Assembly (NCBI GenBank): GCA_018654255.1
Contig: JABILX010000003.1
Location: 13,030-77,029 of the forward strand
DNA from: Candidatus Peregrinibacteria bacterium
GTDB lineage: Bacteria > Patescibacteriota > Gracilibacteria > UBA1369 > LOWO2-01-FULL-3
Length of the DNA stretch: 64,000 bases
Reading direction: 5' to 3'
The notes under the pieces were generated by a model that was not told the DNA's origin, ran no database searches, and saw only the letters and a list, made by a program, of their open reading frames with translations. Positions 14,362-33,664 of the stretch are shown one piece after another. Position numbers and translations under genes: made by a program. Within the stretch, counting starts at the first letter, position 1; the number at the start of each line of letters is the position of its first letter.

Positions 14362-15356
14362 TCAAAAAAATCTTAACTATCTTGGTAACCGCAACTCTAA
14401 GCTTCACGTTTGTCGTGAGCTTTTCGATCGTCCACAACCTGGGCCAACTCGCAACAGCCGAAGAAGCCGAACAAACAAAAGCAAATCAACCTGCAGACAC
14501 ACTATGCCCAAACGGTCTTGCCGACGTAGATGAAGGAGAGTACCACTACATCGCAATCAACGACTTGTTTTCAAAAGGAATCCTCAACGGATACGAAGAC
14601 TGTTCTTTCAAATCATACGACCCAATCAATAGAGCAGAGGCATTGAAAATAACATCAGAAGCATTCACTCCCTTCACAGAAGAATACATAGTTCCAGACA
14701 AACGTCCCTTCCAAGACGTTCCACTAGACGCATGGCACGCAAAATACATCGTCCAAGCAAAAGAAAAAGGAATGACCAACGGATACGAAGATGAAACTTT
14801 CCGACCATGGGAAACAATCAACCTCGCAGAGTCCCTCAAAATAATCACCCAATCCCTAAGCAACTACATCGAACCACACGCAGACGAACTGTTCACAGAC
14901 GTCCAATTGGACACATGGTTCTCAGGATACTTCGCATATGCGAAAGCACGAGACCTTCTCAACATATCCGCAGAAAACAAAGTTTTCCCAGAACAAGAAA
15001 TGAGCAGAGGATATTTCGCAGAAATTATCTACAGACTAAAAAGATCTTTCGAAGGATATGATTTCGGCAAAGCAACCTTTTATGGAGAAGTTTTCCACGG
15101 AAGAAACACAGCCTCAGGCAAAATGTTCGACATGTACGAAATGACAGCAGCACACAAGACCCTACCATTCGGATCAATAGTAGAAGTCACAAACTTAGCA
15201 AACGGCAAAACAGTACAAGTAGAAATAACAGACCGAGGCCCTTACGGCCCTGGCCGAGTGATAGACCTGACATCCTCAGCATTTGAAGTAATATCAAGCC
15301 TCAGCCGCGGAATCATATATGTAGAATACAAAGTGATCTCTGAACCAGTCAATTAA
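14358..15356 (+). CDS. SLH-repeat protein with RlpA-like double-psi beta-barrel domain
   Basis: The C-terminus [23 protein letters not shown]...[31 protein letters not shown] is RlpA/DPBB-like. The N-terminal half has SLH-like repeats (NGYED.SF....INRAEALKI). Confidence 0.75.
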
Positions 15357-16165: not shown

Positions 16166-16993
16166 CTACAATTCAAAATTCAAATCTAGATCCCCAGAAC
16201 CATCTTCATCTTCTTCCGCAAAAAAGATACCAAGCTTAGCTGCCTCCTCTGCGGTCAACCCTTCATCCTCTTCATCATCAGAAAGACGAATACCTTTCGT
16301 CATAGCCCTCCGTTGATCTTTATCTTCAGACGCACTCCAAGTAGAAACATATTCACCACCAACCTTACGATTTGGATCTTTAAAAGTTTCATGAATACGA
16401 GAAGCAGCATATGCAGCAATCTGACGGATCCTTTCCCTAGTCATTCTAGAAATAAACCCAACATCTTCAAGAGAAAGCCCTCCCCTCTCAGCAATATCCA
16501 AAGCACAAGAGGCTGGGATCTCCATAGGATCCATCTCAGGAAAATTAATCTTCAAAGCTCCAGTATCCTTTATCTCCAAATAAAGATGATACCTACAAAG
16601 AAGAAATGGACACGGACGAGGCCCACTCTCACAATGAGCTCTGATCTTAGGACGATTAGCTTCAGCCCATTCTGCCTCTTCTCTCAAATCTCCACCCAAA
16701 TCAGCAACCACATTTTTATGAGTCTTCTCCAACTTCACAAATGGAATAGTCCCCGGCTTCATATACCTAGGCTCATCAACTTCTTCTTCACAACTAGCTT
16801 GCCTTAAAACATCATTCTCAATCACATCATTTTTATCAACCACATCCTCACCCCCAACAAGCACTTTTAAATCTTCATCCGAAAACTCATCCTCAATCAT
16901 TACTCCACCATCAACATCATCTTCATCAAAATCCAGATCAACAATGAGATCTGGATTCACGTCACCATCATGTTCAGGAGCCCTAGTTTCCAT
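16166..16993 (-). CDS. acidic protein with sigma-70 region-4-like HTH
   Basis: The central block CPFLLCRYHLYLE...SLEDVGFISRMTRERIRQIAAYAASRI resembles a sigma region 4 / HTH. Both termini are very acidic. Confidence 0.5.
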   Translation of the reverse strand: METRAPEHDGDVNPDLIVDLDFDEDDVDGGVMIEDEFSDEDLKVLVGGEDVVDKNDVIENDVLRQASCEEEVDEPRYMKPGTIPFVKLEKTHKNVVADLGGDLREEAEWAEANRPKIRAHCESGPRPCPFLLCRYHLYLEIKDTGALKINFPEMDPMEIPASCALDIAERGGLSLEDVGFISRMTRERIRQIAAYAASRIHETFKDPNRKVGGEYVSTWSASEDKDQRRAMTKGIRLSDDEEDEGLTAEEAAKLGIFFAEEDEDGSGDLDLNFEL

Positions 16994-17039
16994 CTAAAAA
17001 ATTTGACAAATATTGTTTATTTGATGTAGAAGTTTTACC

Positions 17040-18698
17040 ATGCTTGACTCACAAACATCAACATTAAATTTCGAAACTCCACCCGAAGACAAAATTTTGA
17101 CTCCGGAAAAATTAGCCGAACTTGCAACAAAAGATTGTGAGAAAGGCGAAATTTTTCTTGGCAACATGGGACAATTCATCCGACTACAAGAACTCGAAGA
17201 CAATATTTGGTATGTACCAATTGAACTGATAATCCCAAACCCAGATCAGCCAAGAAACTACTTCGACGAGAAAAAATTGAATGAGATGGAAGTCTCAATG
17301 TTAGACAGAGGCCAAGAAAATGCTGCAGCAGTAGTTCCATACATAGATTCAGAAGGAAAAATAAAATTTCTAATAGAAGGAGGTGAAAGAAGATTTCGAG
17401 TAATCACCGAAAGAATTGGAGCCCAATACATGAAAGTAGAAATAAAATGGAGGCCAACTTACAAAGAACTTTATGTAGCAGCCGGGCTAGACAACTTAGA
17501 TAGGGAAGATCCCAATCCAATAGAACAAGCCAAGTTCTTCAACAGATTAATAGAATGGGAAATGGAAGCAGATGGAATCGGAAAAGCAAAAGCAACAAAC
17601 ACCATAAGCAAAAAAACAGGAAGAAAAGAAACATTCATAAAAAACAGACTAAAACTGCTCGAAACCTCCGAAATAATACAAACAGCGATTATAGAAGGAC
17701 TCCCTGCGCACATAGGAATTGAAGTAGCTAGAATGGCAAAACGAGGGGACAACCAACTGGCAGCAGAACTAAAAGCCGTACAAATCCTATTAGACAATCC
17801 AGAAAAAGACTACGATAGCGAAGCTGCAAGAATAAAAGACCTCTCAAAACTAACAGTAGGAGAAGCTCAGGAAGTTATGAAAGCAATCTTGGCATCAACA
17901 GGAGGAAAAGCAGGAGAAGAAACCGTAGCAAGAGTAGACGCAGCAAAAAAAATCATTGGATTTTCCTCAGCCCTAACAACAATAATAAATCAATCAAGAA
18001 GACTGGTCGCAAACCCTAAGCTAATCCCAACAATAATAGCAACGATGCAGGAAAGAAGAGGTTACCCACCAGACATAGTCTTCGACAGAATACAAACAGT
18101 GCTCCCAATAATCAGAGGAATTCACAGACAAATAGTTGAAACAGCAACAGATACAGAAATACCTATGAAACCCGACGACCTGAGAGCAGAGCTAGAAGAA
18201 GTAAGAAGCGCCCTCGATGAAATGATCGAAGACCTTGCAGTCCCAACGAGAGGATACCCAACAGAAATAATCAAGACAAGAGCACAAGAAGCATTCGCAA
18301 GACTAAAAGAAGTTTACGAGAAGATAGTCGTAACAGCAATGATTCCGCCACCACTCGAAATCCCTGAAGGAGCCCCCACTTTCTTTGAACAACTAAAAAA
18401 ACAAGGAGCAAACTTAGCCCAAAAAAGCGCACTCAAATTCAGAATAGCAAAAATACTCGCAGACGCATCCGACAACGACGAAAAATCACTAAACAGCAAA
18501 GAAATAGCAGACAAACTAAAAGAGCAAGGCATCAGCACAAAAGAAACAGTCATAGAACAAATCATCAGAGATCTAGACAGCGACTTAATGAGAATGGACC
18601 TAAGAGTAGATGTACAAGTTTTAAGAATCAGAGACAAAAAAACAAACAAACTTCAAAAAGTGAATACATACCGACTCAAGTGGGTAATCAAGAGATAG
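17040..18698 (+). CDS. ParB/Srx N-terminal domain protein with long C-terminal extension
   Basis: ParB-like nuclease-domain blocks are IELIIPNPDQPRNYFDEKKLNEMEVSM and EGGERRFRV. It is divergent from the 16166..16993 gene, with a 46-bp spacer containing TTGACA. Confidence 0.6.
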   Translation: MLDSQTSTLNFETPPEDKILTPEKLAELATKDCEKGEIFLGNMGQFIRLQELEDNIWYVPIELIIPNPDQPRNYFDEKKLNEMEVSMLDRGQENAAAVVPYIDSEGKIKFLIEGGERRFRVITERIGAQYMKVEIKWRPTYKELYVAAGLDNLDREDPNPIEQAKFFNRLIEWEMEADGIGKAKATNTISKKTGRKETFIKNRLKLLETSEIIQTAIIEGLPAHIGIEVARMAKRGDNQLAAELKAVQILLDNPEKDYDSEAARIKDLSKLTVGEAQEVMKAILASTGGKAGEETVARVDAAKKIIGFSSALTTIINQSRRLVANPKLIPTIIATMQERRGYPPDIVFDRIQTVLPIIRGIHRQIVETATDTEIPMKPDDLRAELEEVRSALDEMIEDLAVPTRGYPTEIIKTRAQEAFARLKEVYEKIVVTAMIPPPLEIPEGAPTFFEQLKKQGANLAQKSALKFRIAKILADASDNDEKSLNSKEIADKLKEQGISTKETVIEQIIRDLDSDLMRMDLRVDVQVLRIRDKKTNKLQKVNTYRLKWVIKR

Positions 18699-18753
18699 TA
18701 ATTGACATATATTCTCCGCAAATGGTAACTTCGCCTCCTTTGCAAACAACAAA

Positions 18754-21700
18754 ATGCCAAAAAACACACTAGACAGCCTATTAAAACTGGAAGCACCCGA
18801 GAATCCCCTTCTAGAAATAATAGAGGATCCAATCGCAGCGATCACGATATCAGATGCCTTAAGAGGTCCTGTTCTTAATTTGCTTAGACAAATAGAAACA
18901 AAAAAATAGAGTTAGGAAGAGCCAAAGAACTAATTAGAAGAAAATTACTAACAATAATCGACCAAGAAGAACTGACAATAACTGACAGACAAAAAGCCCT
19001 GCAAGTAATAGACGAAATAGAAGACTCGCCAGAGCCAGAACCAGAACCAATCCCTGAAGCAGAAGACCCACAAGAGACAGAAGAACCCGCGCCCATACTT
19101 CCAGAACACACAGTAGTTCCACACCCAGTAAAAAAAGAAAGCTCTTTTTTCGACAAACTTATATCTCAAATAACCGAAACTCAAAACCCAAAAGCAAAAG
19201 AAATACTCAGATATTTCAGGGAAGCACCTGCAGGAGAAAAAGTATCAATAGGAAAACTAACAGAGCTCATAGGAGCTTCAGCATCCATCACAGCTTGGCT
19301 AATAATAGAAAAACATCTCACACACTCCCGCCCATTTTTCTTAAAAATCACAGGCAAACGAGGCAAAGGACAAAGACCAGAAATACAATTGGCACACACC
19401 CTAGAACCTCCTCCAAAAAAGGAAATCCCAATTCCAGCAAACGCAGTAAAAGGCCCAATCAGAAGAGGCCACCCACTATACGAAGAATTCCAAACCTTTT
19501 ACCACCACGAGATAACAGCTCCTCTATACAGAGAAATCATGTACTACATGTCAAAATTAGAAAGTGGTAAACATACAACAACAGCAGGCATAGTCGCCAA
19601 CACAAGCGTTCCAAACACAAACACCGCAACAGTCCTGATTAAAACCAAGCTAACAACAACCAAGCCATTCTACATAGAACAAGTGAAAAACCCAGATGGA
19701 TCACACCAAAAATTACTATTCCTATGCCACAAAAACCCTGAAGAAGAGGAAGAAAACATAATCCCAGAAAACATAGCAGAAGGCCCGATAACAAAAGCCC
19801 ATCCACTATCGAAAAACCTAGAAAACTTCTTAAGAAATTCAAAAGGAGGAACACACGAAAGAATTATAAGAATACTGGCCGCATCAGCAAACAAAGTTCC
19901 AACCACAATGATTACAATGGAAACCGCAACAGGAGTTGCCACTCAAACTTTAAAAAACACCCTCGATGACCTAAAAGACACTAGGCCATTCTACATAGCA
20001 ACAAGAAAATACGGAAAAACAACAAGCCTTTACTTATGCTATGAAAAAACCAAAGACGAAGACACAAACCTTCCACCAGAAACACCACCATCAGCAGAGA
20101 AATCCAAGAACCCAATCATAAAAACCGACCCACTAGGTACAAAAAAGTTCTTAGCCCAATGCGCAAACACAAAAGCAACATTCAAAGTAGCGCAACTCAT
20201 TGCAGAAGATATGGAGGTTGGCCAACGCACAACATATGAAATACTCAGCAAGAAAACAGGGCTAACACGAACATACTTAATAAAAATAGCCGAGCAACTC
20301 GAACAAACCCAACCATACAAACTAGAAAAATATTTAGCAGAAAAGGTTACAATACTAAAACTGGCAGCAAACCCCATTGAGAAAGAAGATCCAGAAGAGT
20401 CAGAAATAAGCGAAGAAGAAAAAGAACTGTTTTTGGAATGGAAAACACATCCATCACTAATAGGAAAACCCACTATACAAACACTAATAGACTACTTATC
20501 AAAATACCCAATAGGAAGCCGATTTGAAGAATCAAAACTAGCAGAAATACTAGAAATCAAGATTCTTTCATTCAAAAATCAAGTAGCACCAATACTAGCC
20601 GAAACAGAACCTTTATGCCTAATATTGGTAAAAGGCCAATACCAAGCAAAAAGACCCGAAGACGACGAAACCGGACTAGAATACCAAACACAAGAAGACA
20701 AAATAAGAAGACGACTCGTATTAAAACTACTATCAATATACGGTGAAGAAACTATAAACCCACTACCATTCGAACCAGAAATGAGATCCATAGACGACGA
20801 AACCAGCTCCGGGATAACAGCCCTCGCAATAAAATCCATACTAAAACTTGAGAGAAAATTAAAAGACCAGGAATTTGTAGTAGACCAAATTTGTAGAAGA
20901 ATAGATTTACTTATAGAAAATATTCGCAGCCAATTTAAAGACATGCCAGAAGTAGAAAAAGCTCTAAAGTCTTTAGTAGAAAGAGAACGTCAAACAATGG
21001 AAAGAGAAATAAAATTCAAACTATGGCAGAAATCAGCAAAAGGCCAATCGGCAAAAAAAATAGTAAAAGTATTGTCAGATCGATATTTCCAAATAGGAGA
21101 CGAATTGCTTTTAGAAGACTTGGCAAGACTCGCAAAAGTGGAACCACAAACAGTGAAACAAGCAGTAAGGGGAAGTCTGGCAAACACCACTCCATTAGGC
21201 CTGAAAGAAAAACACGAAAGAACTGGCGTGTTCTCTTATACAATCACTGAAAACGAAACCAAAGAAGCAAACAACGGAATCCCCGAAATCCCAATCTTCC
21301 CAGTAGTAGGCCCTATCCACCCAAGTCACCCATTATACCCAGCACTACAACAAACATTGGAAAACTTAGGAAACGCAGAAAGAATAAAAGAGATCTTGCA
21401 ATTCCTAGCAAACAGATACCCAAATCAAACGGTAACTTACCAAACAGTCGCAGAAAAAACCGACGTCCCAAGCTACAACGTCACCCAAGCTACAATAAAC
21501 ATGCACTTAGATGAAGAAACACAACATCACAAAACAGCCCCATTCACAGTAAAAAAATCTCCACTCCCAGGAGAAAAACGAAAAATACAAATAAAGTTAT
21601 GGTGCCGAGCTCAACTACCAAAACAAAAAGAAAGAATGAGAAAACATCCATCTTGCAATGATTGGATAAGAACACTACACGACCCAACAATGCAGAGACT

Positions 21701-22205
21701 AGCAAGAACACTCGTAGACCTAGGACCAAACGAAATAATTTCAACAGACAAATTAATTAGACAAGCCTTTCAAGGCAAGATAACACCTGACGTAGAAAGC
21801 AAAGCTAGAACAGCCATATCAGGAATGCTGAGAATTTTAACAAATCACCCGGAAATCCAAATAACAAGATACATAAGACAAGGAACAACTTACCTAGGAA
21901 CATCCCTGGCAAGCGCAGACGTAACCGAATGGGCAGCTGCAACTCCAAGAAAAGAAATCGAAAGAAAAATGGTTGAAGCAATCTTAGAAAGATTTTTCAC
22001 CTCAAGATCTCGCCCAATAACTTTCACAAAAAAAGAAGTCAAAAAAATATCAGGACTAAAGTCCGTAAAAGAAATCGAACAATTGATAGAGGTCTTGAAC
22101 AAAGCTCCGAATTTCAAACTGATGCAATCTCCACAGGACAAAAAAGAAGTAATGTTCGTCTCAGCAAAAAGAGAAATCACCGATGACCTCACGACCATTA
22201 ATTAA
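18754..22205 (+). CDS. very large protein of tandem winged-helix-like modules; needs a -1 frameshift at an A7 run
   Basis: The ATG at 18754 opens a 51-codon ORF that ends at TAG 18907, right after AAAAAAA (18900-18906). The -1 frame is open from 18888 and runs into ORF 19389..22205. The 167 codons 18888-19388 contain no ATG/GTG/TTG, yet they encode another copy of the repeated module. Confidence 0.55.
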
Positions 22206-32239: not shown

Positions 32240-33664
32240 ATGCAGATTAGAAGAATAAAAAACAAGGGAGTAAACATCTCGATAATCCTCTCCCTAACAA
32301 TCATAGTCATACTTGTAACACTGATAATAAAAGTGCTTTTAAGCATCGATTTCAATGCGCTTATGCTCGCTGCAGGCGAAACACTGGAAAAAGACGAATT
32401 CAACCAAACAAATTTCCTAATTATAGGAACAGGAACAGACGATCACGATGGTGCAGACCTGACAGACACAATAATAGTAGCCAGCCTCGACCACAATCTC
32501 GACGTAGTCACGATGGTTTCTATACCAAGAGACCTACATATCGACGATGATTTATTGCAAGTCCCAAGAATCAACGAAATCTTTTATTACGCAAAAGAAC
32601 ATTTTGGCAATGAAAAAGAAGGTTTAGACTTCTTGGTCAAAAAAGTCGAAGAATCAACAGGTCTACCAATCCATTACCACGTCAAAATTGACTTCAAAGG
32701 ATTCACAGAGATCATAGATGCAATCGGAGGCATAGACATCGATGTACCAGAAGCAATATACGACCCATTCTATCCAAAAGCAGAAACAATATCTTACGAA
32801 TTATTCCAAGTATCAAAAGGACTTCAACACATGGATGGCGCAACAGCCCTCAAATATGCACGAAGTCGTAAAACAACCTCAGACTTCGACAGATCAAAAC
32901 GCCAACAACAAATAATATACGCATTGAAAGAAAAAGCTCTCCAAACACGCCTAATCCTCGACACAGACAAATTAAAAGAACTTCTAAACACAGTAAACGA
33001 CAACATAGAAACAAACCTAAACATCAGAGAAATGCTCACACTAGGAGCACTCGCAGACAACTTCTCCCAAGAGAAAGTCTTGAGTTTTCAAATCCACGAC
33101 GATCCAGTTCAATGCGGAGGATTCCTTTATGCTCCTCCCATACAACAGACCGGCGGAGCTTTCGTCCTTGAACCTGCAGGAGGAATCGAATACCTCCAAA
33201 AATATTTTGATTTGATAACAAAACACCAACCAGCATTCCACGAAAATCTCAAAATCCAAGTCCTCAACGGCACACCAGCCGCAGGAATCGCAGCAGAAAA
33301 CAAACAAGTCTTCCAAAGATACTGCATGGATGTAGAAAGATTCGGGAACGCAAGATCTCAAAACATCAAACAAACAACAATTTACTACAACCCAATTCCC
33401 CTACCAAAAAAAGAACCCACCGAAGAAACAAAATACTACACTCCCTTCACAATAGAGCTAATAAAAGAAATTATTCCCGAAGCAGTAACTTCAGAAACAT
33501 TCCCACAAGAATACATCGACCAAGGATATGACAAACTCTCAGACATAATCGTAGAAATCGGGGAAGATTACATCGACTCAGATCACTACTTGGAAGACAG
33601 CTTCTACCCTTTGTACGAAATAATTTACGCAGAACCAACCCTAGAACCAACTACAGATGAATAA
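32240..33664 (+). CDS. LytR-CpsA-Psr (LCP) family protein
   Basis: N-terminal TM, then the LCP core (GADLTDTIIVASLD...VSIPRDL, ALKYARSRK). Confidence 0.8.
   Translation: MQIRRIKNKGVNISIILSLTIIVILVTLIIKVLLSIDFNALMLAAGETLEKDEFNQTNFLIIGTGTDDHDGADLTDTIIVASLDHNLDVVTMVSIPRDLHIDDDLLQVPRINEIFYYAKEHFGNEKEGLDFLVKKVEESTGLPIHYHVKIDFKGFTEIIDAIGGIDIDVPEAIYDPFYPKAETISYELFQVSKGLQHMDGATALKYARSRKTTSDFDRSKRQQQIIYALKEKALQTRLILDTDKLKELLNTVNDNIETNLNIREMLTLGALADNFSQEKVLSFQIHDDPVQCGGFLYAPPIQQTGGAFVLEPAGGIEYLQKYFDLITKHQPAFHENLKIQVLNGTPAAGIAAENKQVFQRYCMDVERFGNARSQNIKQTTIYYNPIPLPKKEPTEETKYYTPFTIELIKEIIPEAVTSETFPQEYIDQGYDKLSDIIVEIGEDYIDSDHYLEDSFYPLYEIIYAEPTLEPTTDE

Follow-up and report, generated by a model that had tools for sequence, protein, structure and literature searches.

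The window analysed here is a stretch of 64,000 nucleotides from a Candidatus Peregrinibacteria bacterium (assembly GCA_018654255.1, contig JABILX010000003.1, positions 13,030 to 77,029 of the forward strand), and it carries a giant gene that is divided between two reading frames at a run of seven adenines (A7). The true unit at this locus is a frameshifted gene of ~1150 codons that belongs to a small orphan family. The split is probably the result of a recent, lineage-specific deletion of one base within the A-run, fixed in a near-clonal population; what remains would be a young pseudogene or a gene whose sole route to expression is weak, unprogrammed slippage. An earlier note on this DNA had linked the two frames and placed the switch at the A7 run, and this part of its reading is right; the best-fitting explanation, a recent fixed frameshift mutation, was missing from the four options that it listed.

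Reading frames at the split site

The elements of the split gene, in window coordinates, are as follows.

18754-18909, + strand: piece 1 of the giant gene, encoding the conserved N-terminus (MPKNTLDSLLKLEAPENPLLEIIEDPIAAITISD...); coding score positive, 62% identity to the orthologue N-terminus
18900-18906, + strand: A7 homopolymer, where the base was most likely lost; all other assemblies found also have A7, no A-run in homologues
18906-22205, + strand: piece 2, in the -1 frame, 1099 sense codons from ATA 18906 to TAA 22203-22205; 58-62% identity to the orthologue P0004
19389-19391, + strand: TTG, the first canonical start in the -1 frame, where public gene calls start the 938-amino acid protein P0003

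Frame 0 extends from the ATG at 18754 for 51 codons and ends at a TAG (18907-18909). The A7 run follows a C at 18899, and the frame 0 codons across it are ACA AAA AAA TAG (wider context GAA ACA AAA AAA TAG AGT TAG G), which puts the run in the phase A_AAA_AAA. The -1 frame contains a TAG at 18885-18887 and is then open from 18888 to the TAA at 22203-22205, a total of 1105 codons, with 167 codons that lack a start before its earliest ATG, GTG or TTG, the TTG at 19389. The frame switch is confined to 18888-18906, and an A8 or A5 run at 18900-18906 would produce one continuous open reading frame (ORF). The earlier note had described this arrangement, including the C-AAAAAAA preceding the TAG, the extent of the -1 frame, its start-less codons and the slippery heptamer, and all of its coordinates and counts hold.

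The codon-usage model used to score coding potential was trained with 429 long ORFs from the source genome. Its score is positive for frame 0 over 18754-18844 and for the -1 frame beginning at 18904, and this handover shows that the coding really switches frame at the A7 run. The start-less stretch had been proposed to encode another copy of the repeated module seen downstream, and the comparison bears this out, as the Smith-Waterman score between module 2 and module 1 (residues 130-216 of the fused product) is 59, against a mean of 33.6 for shuffled sequences (standard deviation 3.9, maximum 49). A BLASTP search of the giant protein against itself did not show the repeats. In the fused product the junction is ...LLRQIETKK/IELGRAKELIRRKLL..., so that the full-length protein reads ...ETKKIELG..., and the -1 frame product contains the peptides AKELIR and LLTIIDQEELTITDR.

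Public gene calls at the locus consist of the 51-amino acid ORF and the 938-amino acid protein from TTG 19389. The start-context score of ATG 18754 (3.19) lies at the median of presumed true starts and at the 99th percentile of internal ATGs, and that of TTG 19389 (1.53) lies at the 27th percentile of presumed starts. Initiation at this TTG would omit the N-terminal domain and module 1, which are conserved in all homologues.

Two other candidate features of the site were rejected. Alternative decoding is ruled out by the use of all three stop codons in the genome (TAA 456, TAG 242, TGA 150) and the lack of a suppressor tRNA, as well as by a second TAG and a TAA in frame 0 no more than 7 codons past the first stop. 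The promoter-like sequence TAGACA-16-TAGAGT that spans the A7 run is at chance level.

Homologues of the giant gene

Homologues were sought with the conceptually fused protein (the 51-codon piece plus the -1 frame) as the query. The orthologue P0004, located on contig FLOH01000057.1 (GCA_900089805.1), is 1143 amino acids long and exhibits 60% identity with 100% coverage. It is encoded by a single uninterrupted ORF starting MPNTLESLLQPEAPENPLLEVIQDPIAAITISD..., which matches the 51-codon ORF of the window, and the alignment of the fused product to P0004 is free of gaps across the junction. Identity is 62% for piece 1, 58% for the start-less stretch and 58-62% throughout piece 2. The ratio of nonsynonymous to synonymous divergence (dN/dS) against the orthologue, with each part taken in its own frame, is 0.22 for the 51-codon piece, 0.41 for the start-less stretch and 0.23 for the remainder.

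A profile search of 1.84 billion representative proteins provided only two further full-length relatives, P0007 (978 amino acids) and P0008 (979 amino acids), together with one fragment. Each of the two is encoded by one ORF that includes the N-terminal region, and the N-terminal motif (S)L..P..(P)ENP of the window protein is also found in both. Protein-profile scans of genome contigs and metagenome contigs returned the FLOH01 orthologue alone, and no orthologue of the giant protein was found among the 40 relatives searched. Judging from these alignments, the two pieces were one gene, for which relatives encode a single colinear ORF, and the earlier proposal that the 51-codon ORF and the giant -1 ORF belong together is borne out by the single ORF of the homologues.

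Upstream of the start codon, a DNA alignment with FLOH01000057 identifies two conserved motifs, a -35-like TTGACA (18702-18707, + strand) within the block TAATTGACA and a CTCCTTT at 18733-18739. These two blocks, TAATTGACA and CTCCTTT, may represent a promoter -35 element and a leader element; a promoter scan called no full promoter in the 18702-18739 region.

The A7 run in independent assemblies

Further contigs that carry the site were located by exact look-ups of the public gene products P0003 and P0001. The run is A7 in the contigs of all 11 further samples for which DNA was available:

NCBI assemblies: GCA_018650705.1, GCA_018653375.1
ENA assemblies with contig names of the form NODE_... 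(SPAdes-style): ERZ4200950, ERZ4200980, ERZ4200993
ENA assemblies with contig names of the form k141_... (MEGAHIT-style): ERZ27237568, ERZ27237574, ERZ27237584, ERZ27250158
JGI metagenomes: 3300022912, 3300024259

A twelfth sample (JGI 3300072015) has identical split gene calls and is known from gene calls alone. The carrier contigs are 100% identical to the window over up to 3601 bases, with the exception of one single-nucleotide polymorphism (SNP). This sole SNP within the gene changes CTA to CTC at 19724 in piece 2 and is synonymous. Since flanking diversity among the carriers is only ~1e-4 across samples (outside one 85-base hypervariable patch), the carriers are a near-clonal population that has been sampled repeatedly. 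A fused, A8-type protein is absent from a collection of 15 billion proteins at lengths of 55-476 and 633-2000 amino acids, and metagenome contigs scanned for the exact pattern of the site, with the length of the A-run left free, gave no match. A one-base assembly error, one of the options first considered, is effectively excluded by the presence of A7 in all assemblies, from 11 further samples and at least three pipelines (SPAdes-type, MEGAHIT-type and JGI).

The hypervariable patch lies at 14831-14915 in the SLH/DPBB gene, where GCA_018653375.1 differs from the window at 19 positions within 85 bases and is identical over the surrounding 8 kb. The patch is either hypervariable or recombined, or a mis-assembled repeat.

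Age and constraint of the split

With P0007 and P0008 as outgroups, relative-rate counts for the source lineage and the intact orthologue are 25 vs 22, 53 vs 51 and 62 vs 59 lineage-specific changes, and these counts give no acceleration of the split gene. No extra stops or frameshifts occur in the 1099 downstream codons, and five other A7/A8 runs within the gene all keep the frame. Piece 2 offers 175 stop-creating targets, so a neutral frame would stay open with a probability of at least 5% only to a distance d of ~0.017; synonymous divergence (dS) to the orthologue is ~1.1. If piece 2 evolves neutrally, the break is very young (d < ~0.017). The break may be very recent, or the downstream part may still be under selection, and both fit these data. 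All carriers of the frameshifted gene are near-identical (~1e-4), the gene in them is intact and unaccelerated, and the nearest other species is without the site.

Predicted structure of the protein

An AlphaFold model of residues 1-360 of the orthologue has a mean predicted local distance difference test (pLDDT) score of 74. The N-terminal domain is predicted to consist of three helices (25-47, 53-71 and 75-86) and to be followed by a disordered acidic/proline linker, after which the modules are predicted to form four helices and a beta-hairpin each (pLDDT 80-90). The junction (residue 51/52 in the window protein, 50/51 in the orthologue) is predicted to fall in the loop between helices 1 and 2, and the 51-amino acid product would for this reason be a domain fragment with helix 1 only. 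Piece 2 would encode the rest of the helical N-terminal domain, the acidic/proline linker and tandem winged-helix-like modules. A Foldseek search against the PDB did not provide a significant match, and the weak top hits were tandem winged-helix proteins (RNA polymerase III subunit chains, TFIIIC, RepE and ScpB). No family for the giant protein was identified in Pfam, PADLOC, PDB sequence profiles, phage records or plasmid records.

Homopolymers and other split genes in the genome

The source genome (1.24 Mb in 9 contigs, 96% complete) has a strong excess of A over T and of C over G on the coding strand, and its A/T homopolymers include 981 with a length of exactly 7 and 180 with a length of exactly 8. 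Among 1283 long homopolymers, the run at 18900-18906 is alone in linking two long coding frames of which the downstream one has no start for 160 codons, which indicates that the assembly is not riddled with homopolymer errors. The start-less stretch ranks second in coding score among long stretches of this kind, behind a low-complexity antisense artefact. Several other apparent homopolymer junctions proved on inspection to be normal gene boundaries or antisense artefacts. A looser scan followed by inspection identified two more true splits, both correctable by a -1 shift or the addition of one A.

The first of these is in an LCP (LytR_cpsA_psr) gene on contig C2 (minus strand, ~248159-248167), which is split at an A9 run, so that the membrane/repeat N-terminal part is not in the frame of the LCP domain. 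At this position, 20 relatives (loci L030-L050) have A9, A10 or A11. Tracts of A10 or A11 give one ORF of ~700 amino acids; with A9 the gene is split but each half is intact, as in the source genome, a genome of the same genus and several other lineages. The LCP tract is a conserved frame-toggling poly-A tract and shows the slippage/contingency tract pattern of the clade.

The second is another A7 split (C2:33349-33821, + strand, with A7 at 33512-33518), which is lineage-specific and in the same -1 direction. An ORF of 58 amino acids encoding a membrane anchor (...SEESHGEKNL*) precedes a -1 frame stretch of 121 codons with DWISFYEGLDD-type repeats, and the genome of the same genus (G002:C38, L064) has both parts in one open frame of 239 amino acids. 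The mismatch repair genes mutS and mutL are present in the source genome.

A split of a different kind is observed at C3:172584-172586, where a Cys-rich gene that is otherwise continuous is interrupted by an in-frame TAG (...HMIRTGE*GEFFPHALAPFPYN...). It could be a nonsense mutation or a read-through site; the genome has no suppressor tRNA.

Tests for programmed frameshifting

A programmed -1 site requires an in-phase X_XXY_YYZ heptamer, and one is present (A_AAA_AAA, 18900-18906). Loss of a single A from ACA AAA AAA ATA GAG, however, automatically yields both the A_AAA_AAA phase and the adjacent TAG, and these two features therefore carry little weight as evidence of design. Neither an A-run nor a stop occurs at the homologous site in P0004, P0007 or P0008: the orthologue has AAAAGGAAAGAAAACGCTGCG / AAAAGGAAAGAAAACGCTGCGGAT, with no run and no stop, and P0007 and P0008 have no lysines there. 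Conservation of the slippery site and of the 0-frame stop in orthologues had been named as a check, and both are absent from all three homologues.

Signals that might stimulate slippage were also sought. Downstream windows of 60-100 nt have folding energies of -2.7 to -5.7 kcal/mol (z -0.35 to 0), no better than shuffled sequences, Rfam gave no match at the site, and no Shine-Dalgarno-like element lies upstream of the A7 run. The 653 presumed starts in the genome lack a Shine-Dalgarno signal; the sequence before them is depleted in G from -20 to -5 and has a T/A-rich peak at -15 to -10. The in-phase heptamer (A7 starting at codon position 3) occurs 259 times in 646 long ORFs, in which it is the commonest phase, and A8 runs occur 101 times. 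In E. coli, AAAAAAA is under-represented in all frames, and heptamers without stimulators reach only 2-10 times the 0.055% background (PMC4066793); slippage of E. coli RNA polymerase is undetectable below 8 A (PMC6260861). The option of programmed frameshifting, as a conserved or evolved signal, is not supported, given that the site is in no homologue, lacks a stimulator and consists of a heptamer common in the genome.

Interpretation of the split

The preferred reading is that a single ancestral gene, encoding a protein of ~1150 amino acids, would have lost one A in a poly-A run (presumably A8 to A7) in the source lineage only. The deletion is real DNA and is now fixed in a near-clonal natural population. 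Ribosomes that initiate at ATG 18754 would stop at TAG 18907 after 51 residues, and the remaining 1099 codons would be reachable only by unprogrammed events, such as a basal -1 slip on A_AAA_AAA, the addition of one A by RNA polymerase or rare internal initiation. The outcome would be a pseudogene of very recent origin or a gene that is strongly down-tuned (leaky), with no evolved recoding device. We infer the direction and site of the mutation, and the low expression of the full-length product.

Several observations weigh against a recent loss. The intact frame of 1099 codons and the unaccelerated rate are equally expected of a gene under selection, and the neighbouring genes of the same island are intact. 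The same genome keeps the LCP gene out of frame at A9, and across ~20 relatives that tract is A9, A10 or A11 with both halves intact; because of this conservation, slippage rescue at A-runs probably operates in the clade. The second A7 split, at C2:33512, is in the same -1 direction. Run lengths were judged from assembled consensus DNA, and minor A8 alleles or edited transcripts may exist.

The alternative that survives best, though we consider it unlikely, is functional compensation, in which the frameshifted allele is tolerated or favoured and RNA polymerase adds an A, or ribosomes slip by -1, to make a useful full-length protein. This would agree with the correct phase of the run and the 0-frame stop directly after it, with two intact pieces and an unaccelerated rate, and with the synonymous nature of the only SNP in piece 2 (CTA to CTC, 19724). 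The same genome and genus hold the LCP gene out of frame at a clade-conserved A9 with its halves intact, the correction needed (+1 A or -1) is identical at the three split sites of the genome, and there are precedents in the poly-A genes of Buchnera and Blochmannia (PMC3017870) and in tssM1 (PMC4256274). The A7 run is, however, shorter than all of the proven transcriptional-slippage sites cited (9-11 A) and below the 8-A limit for E. coli RNA polymerase (PMC6260861), from which the polymerase of this organism may differ. No stimulator for ribosomal slippage accompanies the site, it is in no homologue, and A_AAA_AAA cannot be very slippery alone because it is abundant in genes (259 in 646 long ORFs). 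Fixation is uninformative on selection since the carriers are near-clonal. What probability compensation retains is owed to two other sites in the genome, the clade-conserved A9/A10 LCP tract and the additional A7 split.

Phase variation, in which replication slippage between A7 (off) and A8 (on) reversibly controls an accessory DNA-binding protein, is very doubtful. The homopolymer is early in the ORF (codon 49-51 of ~1150), the gene is within a fast-evolving accessory island, and interspecies homopolymer toggling occurs at the LCP tract of the same clade. Against this, the consensus sequences of all 11 other samples with DNA read A7 with no length polymorphism, the protein collection holds no A8-type product, and the tract is conserved in no homologue, which leaves this option of the earlier note unsupported. 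MutS and MutL are also present, and A7/A8 tracts are common in the genome and not otherwise tied to split genes.

Production of two polypeptides is another improbable reading. The 51-amino acid peptide would be released, and piece 2 would be translated by reinitiation at AUA 18906 or a near-cognate codon (N-terminus IELGR...) or from TTG 19389 (N-terminus AHTLEPP...). The ATA at 18906-18908 overlaps the stop (A-UAG/AUA-G), the start-context score of TTG 19389 is middling, and internal initiation is conceivable in a genome with A-rich mRNAs and without Shine-Dalgarno use. Near-cognate AUA starts are, however, very inefficient in tested bacteria. The junction is predicted to lie in a loop of the three-helix N-terminal domain, which would leave helix 1 alone as the 51-amino acid piece, and all three homologues are single chains. 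A start at TTG 19389 would discard the N-terminal domain and module 1, whose codons are intact and under purifying selection against the orthologue. The non-canonical start that had been offered as an explanation is unlikely, as the N-terminal 51 residues are conserved in three intact homologues and encoded in frame 0.

An artefact, with a true A8 sequence and an intact gene, is scarcely credible: one-base miscalls classically fall in homopolymers and the fused product follows the orthologue in perfect colinearity, but consistent miscalls of 7-8-mers are rare on short-read platforms, A7 recurs in the window's own assembly and 11 other sample assemblies from at least three pipelines, and no other of the 1283 long homopolymers breaks a gene likewise, except the two sites corroborated by relatives.

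Genomic island

The giant gene is the last of three genes in an island (16166-22205), of which the other two are:

17040-18698, + strand: upstream neighbour encoding an intact ParB/Srx-domain protein of 552 amino acids; Pfam ParB_N and HTH_ParB; 68% identity to its orthologue
16166-16993, - strand: divergent gene of 275 amino acids; 52% identity to its orthologue; the counterpart in locus L027 carries Sigma70_r4

The island exhibits 52-68% identity to the orthologous region, in contrast to 85-92% for housekeeping neighbours, and by this comparison appears to be a fast-evolving, patchily distributed, accessory region. Gene order is shared with FLOH01000057.1 and consists of rnpA, yidC, jag, the SLH/DPBB gene, a 103-amino acid gene, the reverse gene, the ParB-like gene and the giant gene. 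On the 3' side of the giant gene, FLOH01000057.1 encodes a NUDIX protein, which is extra relative to the window, and a class-V aminotransferase. The ParB-like protein has no orthologue in the 25 relatives searched, apart from a weak match in one genome (G013), and Pfam gave no match for the window copy of the 275-amino acid gene. The ParB-like gene accompanies the giant gene in loci L006 and L027. In the loci of P0007 and P0008, L027 contains ParB-like and Sigma70_r4 genes and L026 has a downstream aminotransferase gene. A gene encoding an rve-family integrase/transposase occupies the usual place of the ParB-like gene in L026.

Significance and comparison with known systems

Taken alone, the split is of minor importance as a further case of an accessory gene with a homopolymer frameshift, and its consequence is chiefly an annotation correction. 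It is a clean example of how a real, fixed indel can be separated from an assembly error via many independent metagenome assemblies, and, being itself unconserved, it can be set against the A9/A10 LCP tract that this clade conserves. By analogy with endosymbionts, these marine bacteria of the Candidate Phyla Radiation (CPR) might routinely tolerate genes that are one A short, with RNA polymerase or ribosomes restoring the frame at tracts down to A7, an idea that we regard as speculative. If true, three genes that are out of frame in the DNA would nevertheless be expressed (the giant gene, the other gene split at A7 and the LCP gene with its A9), and run length would act as an expression throttle. 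Should slippage rescue also hold for A7 sites, endosymbiont-style tolerance of poly-A frameshifts would extend to free-living or episymbiotic CPR bacteria.

The closest comparison is within the same genome. The LCP tract resembles the A7 site in the direction of the shift (+1 A or a -1 slip) and in having the 0-frame stop no more than 2 codons from the run. It differs in that it is found at the same position in ~20 relatives and toggles between in-frame A10/A11 and split A9, whereas the A7 site has no counterpart in homologues.

In programmed -1 frameshifting, as in E. coli dnaX and IS911/IS3 (PMC4066793, PMC5009743), an in-phase heptamer likewise precedes a long product in the -1 frame, and here the heptamer is all A. 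The site described here is unlike these in having no downstream hairpin or pseudoknot and no upstream Shine-Dalgarno-like element; it is also unconserved, and its heptamer is common rather than avoided in the genes of the genome.

In Citrobacter rodentium tssM1 (PMC4256274), poly-A just before a premature stop is shared with the present gene, and a base added to the mRNA restores the long C-terminal part. The tssM1 run is A11, slips with ~20% efficiency, gives two products that are both needed and is conserved in Yersinia; here the run is A7 at an unconserved site, and the short product is a 51-amino acid domain fragment.

Frameshifted poly-A and poly-T genes of Blochmannia and Buchnera have been read as early erosion or as genes rescued by transcriptional slippage (PMC3017870). 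They share with the present case a single A-run indel in an otherwise intact gene, a small A-rich genome with many tracts, the lack of rate acceleration and the same ambiguity between erosion and rescue. The endosymbiont tracts are 9-12 bases long and some of their frameshifts are conserved between species, whereas the giant gene is split at a lineage-specific A7 run in a genome in which mismatch repair genes are present.

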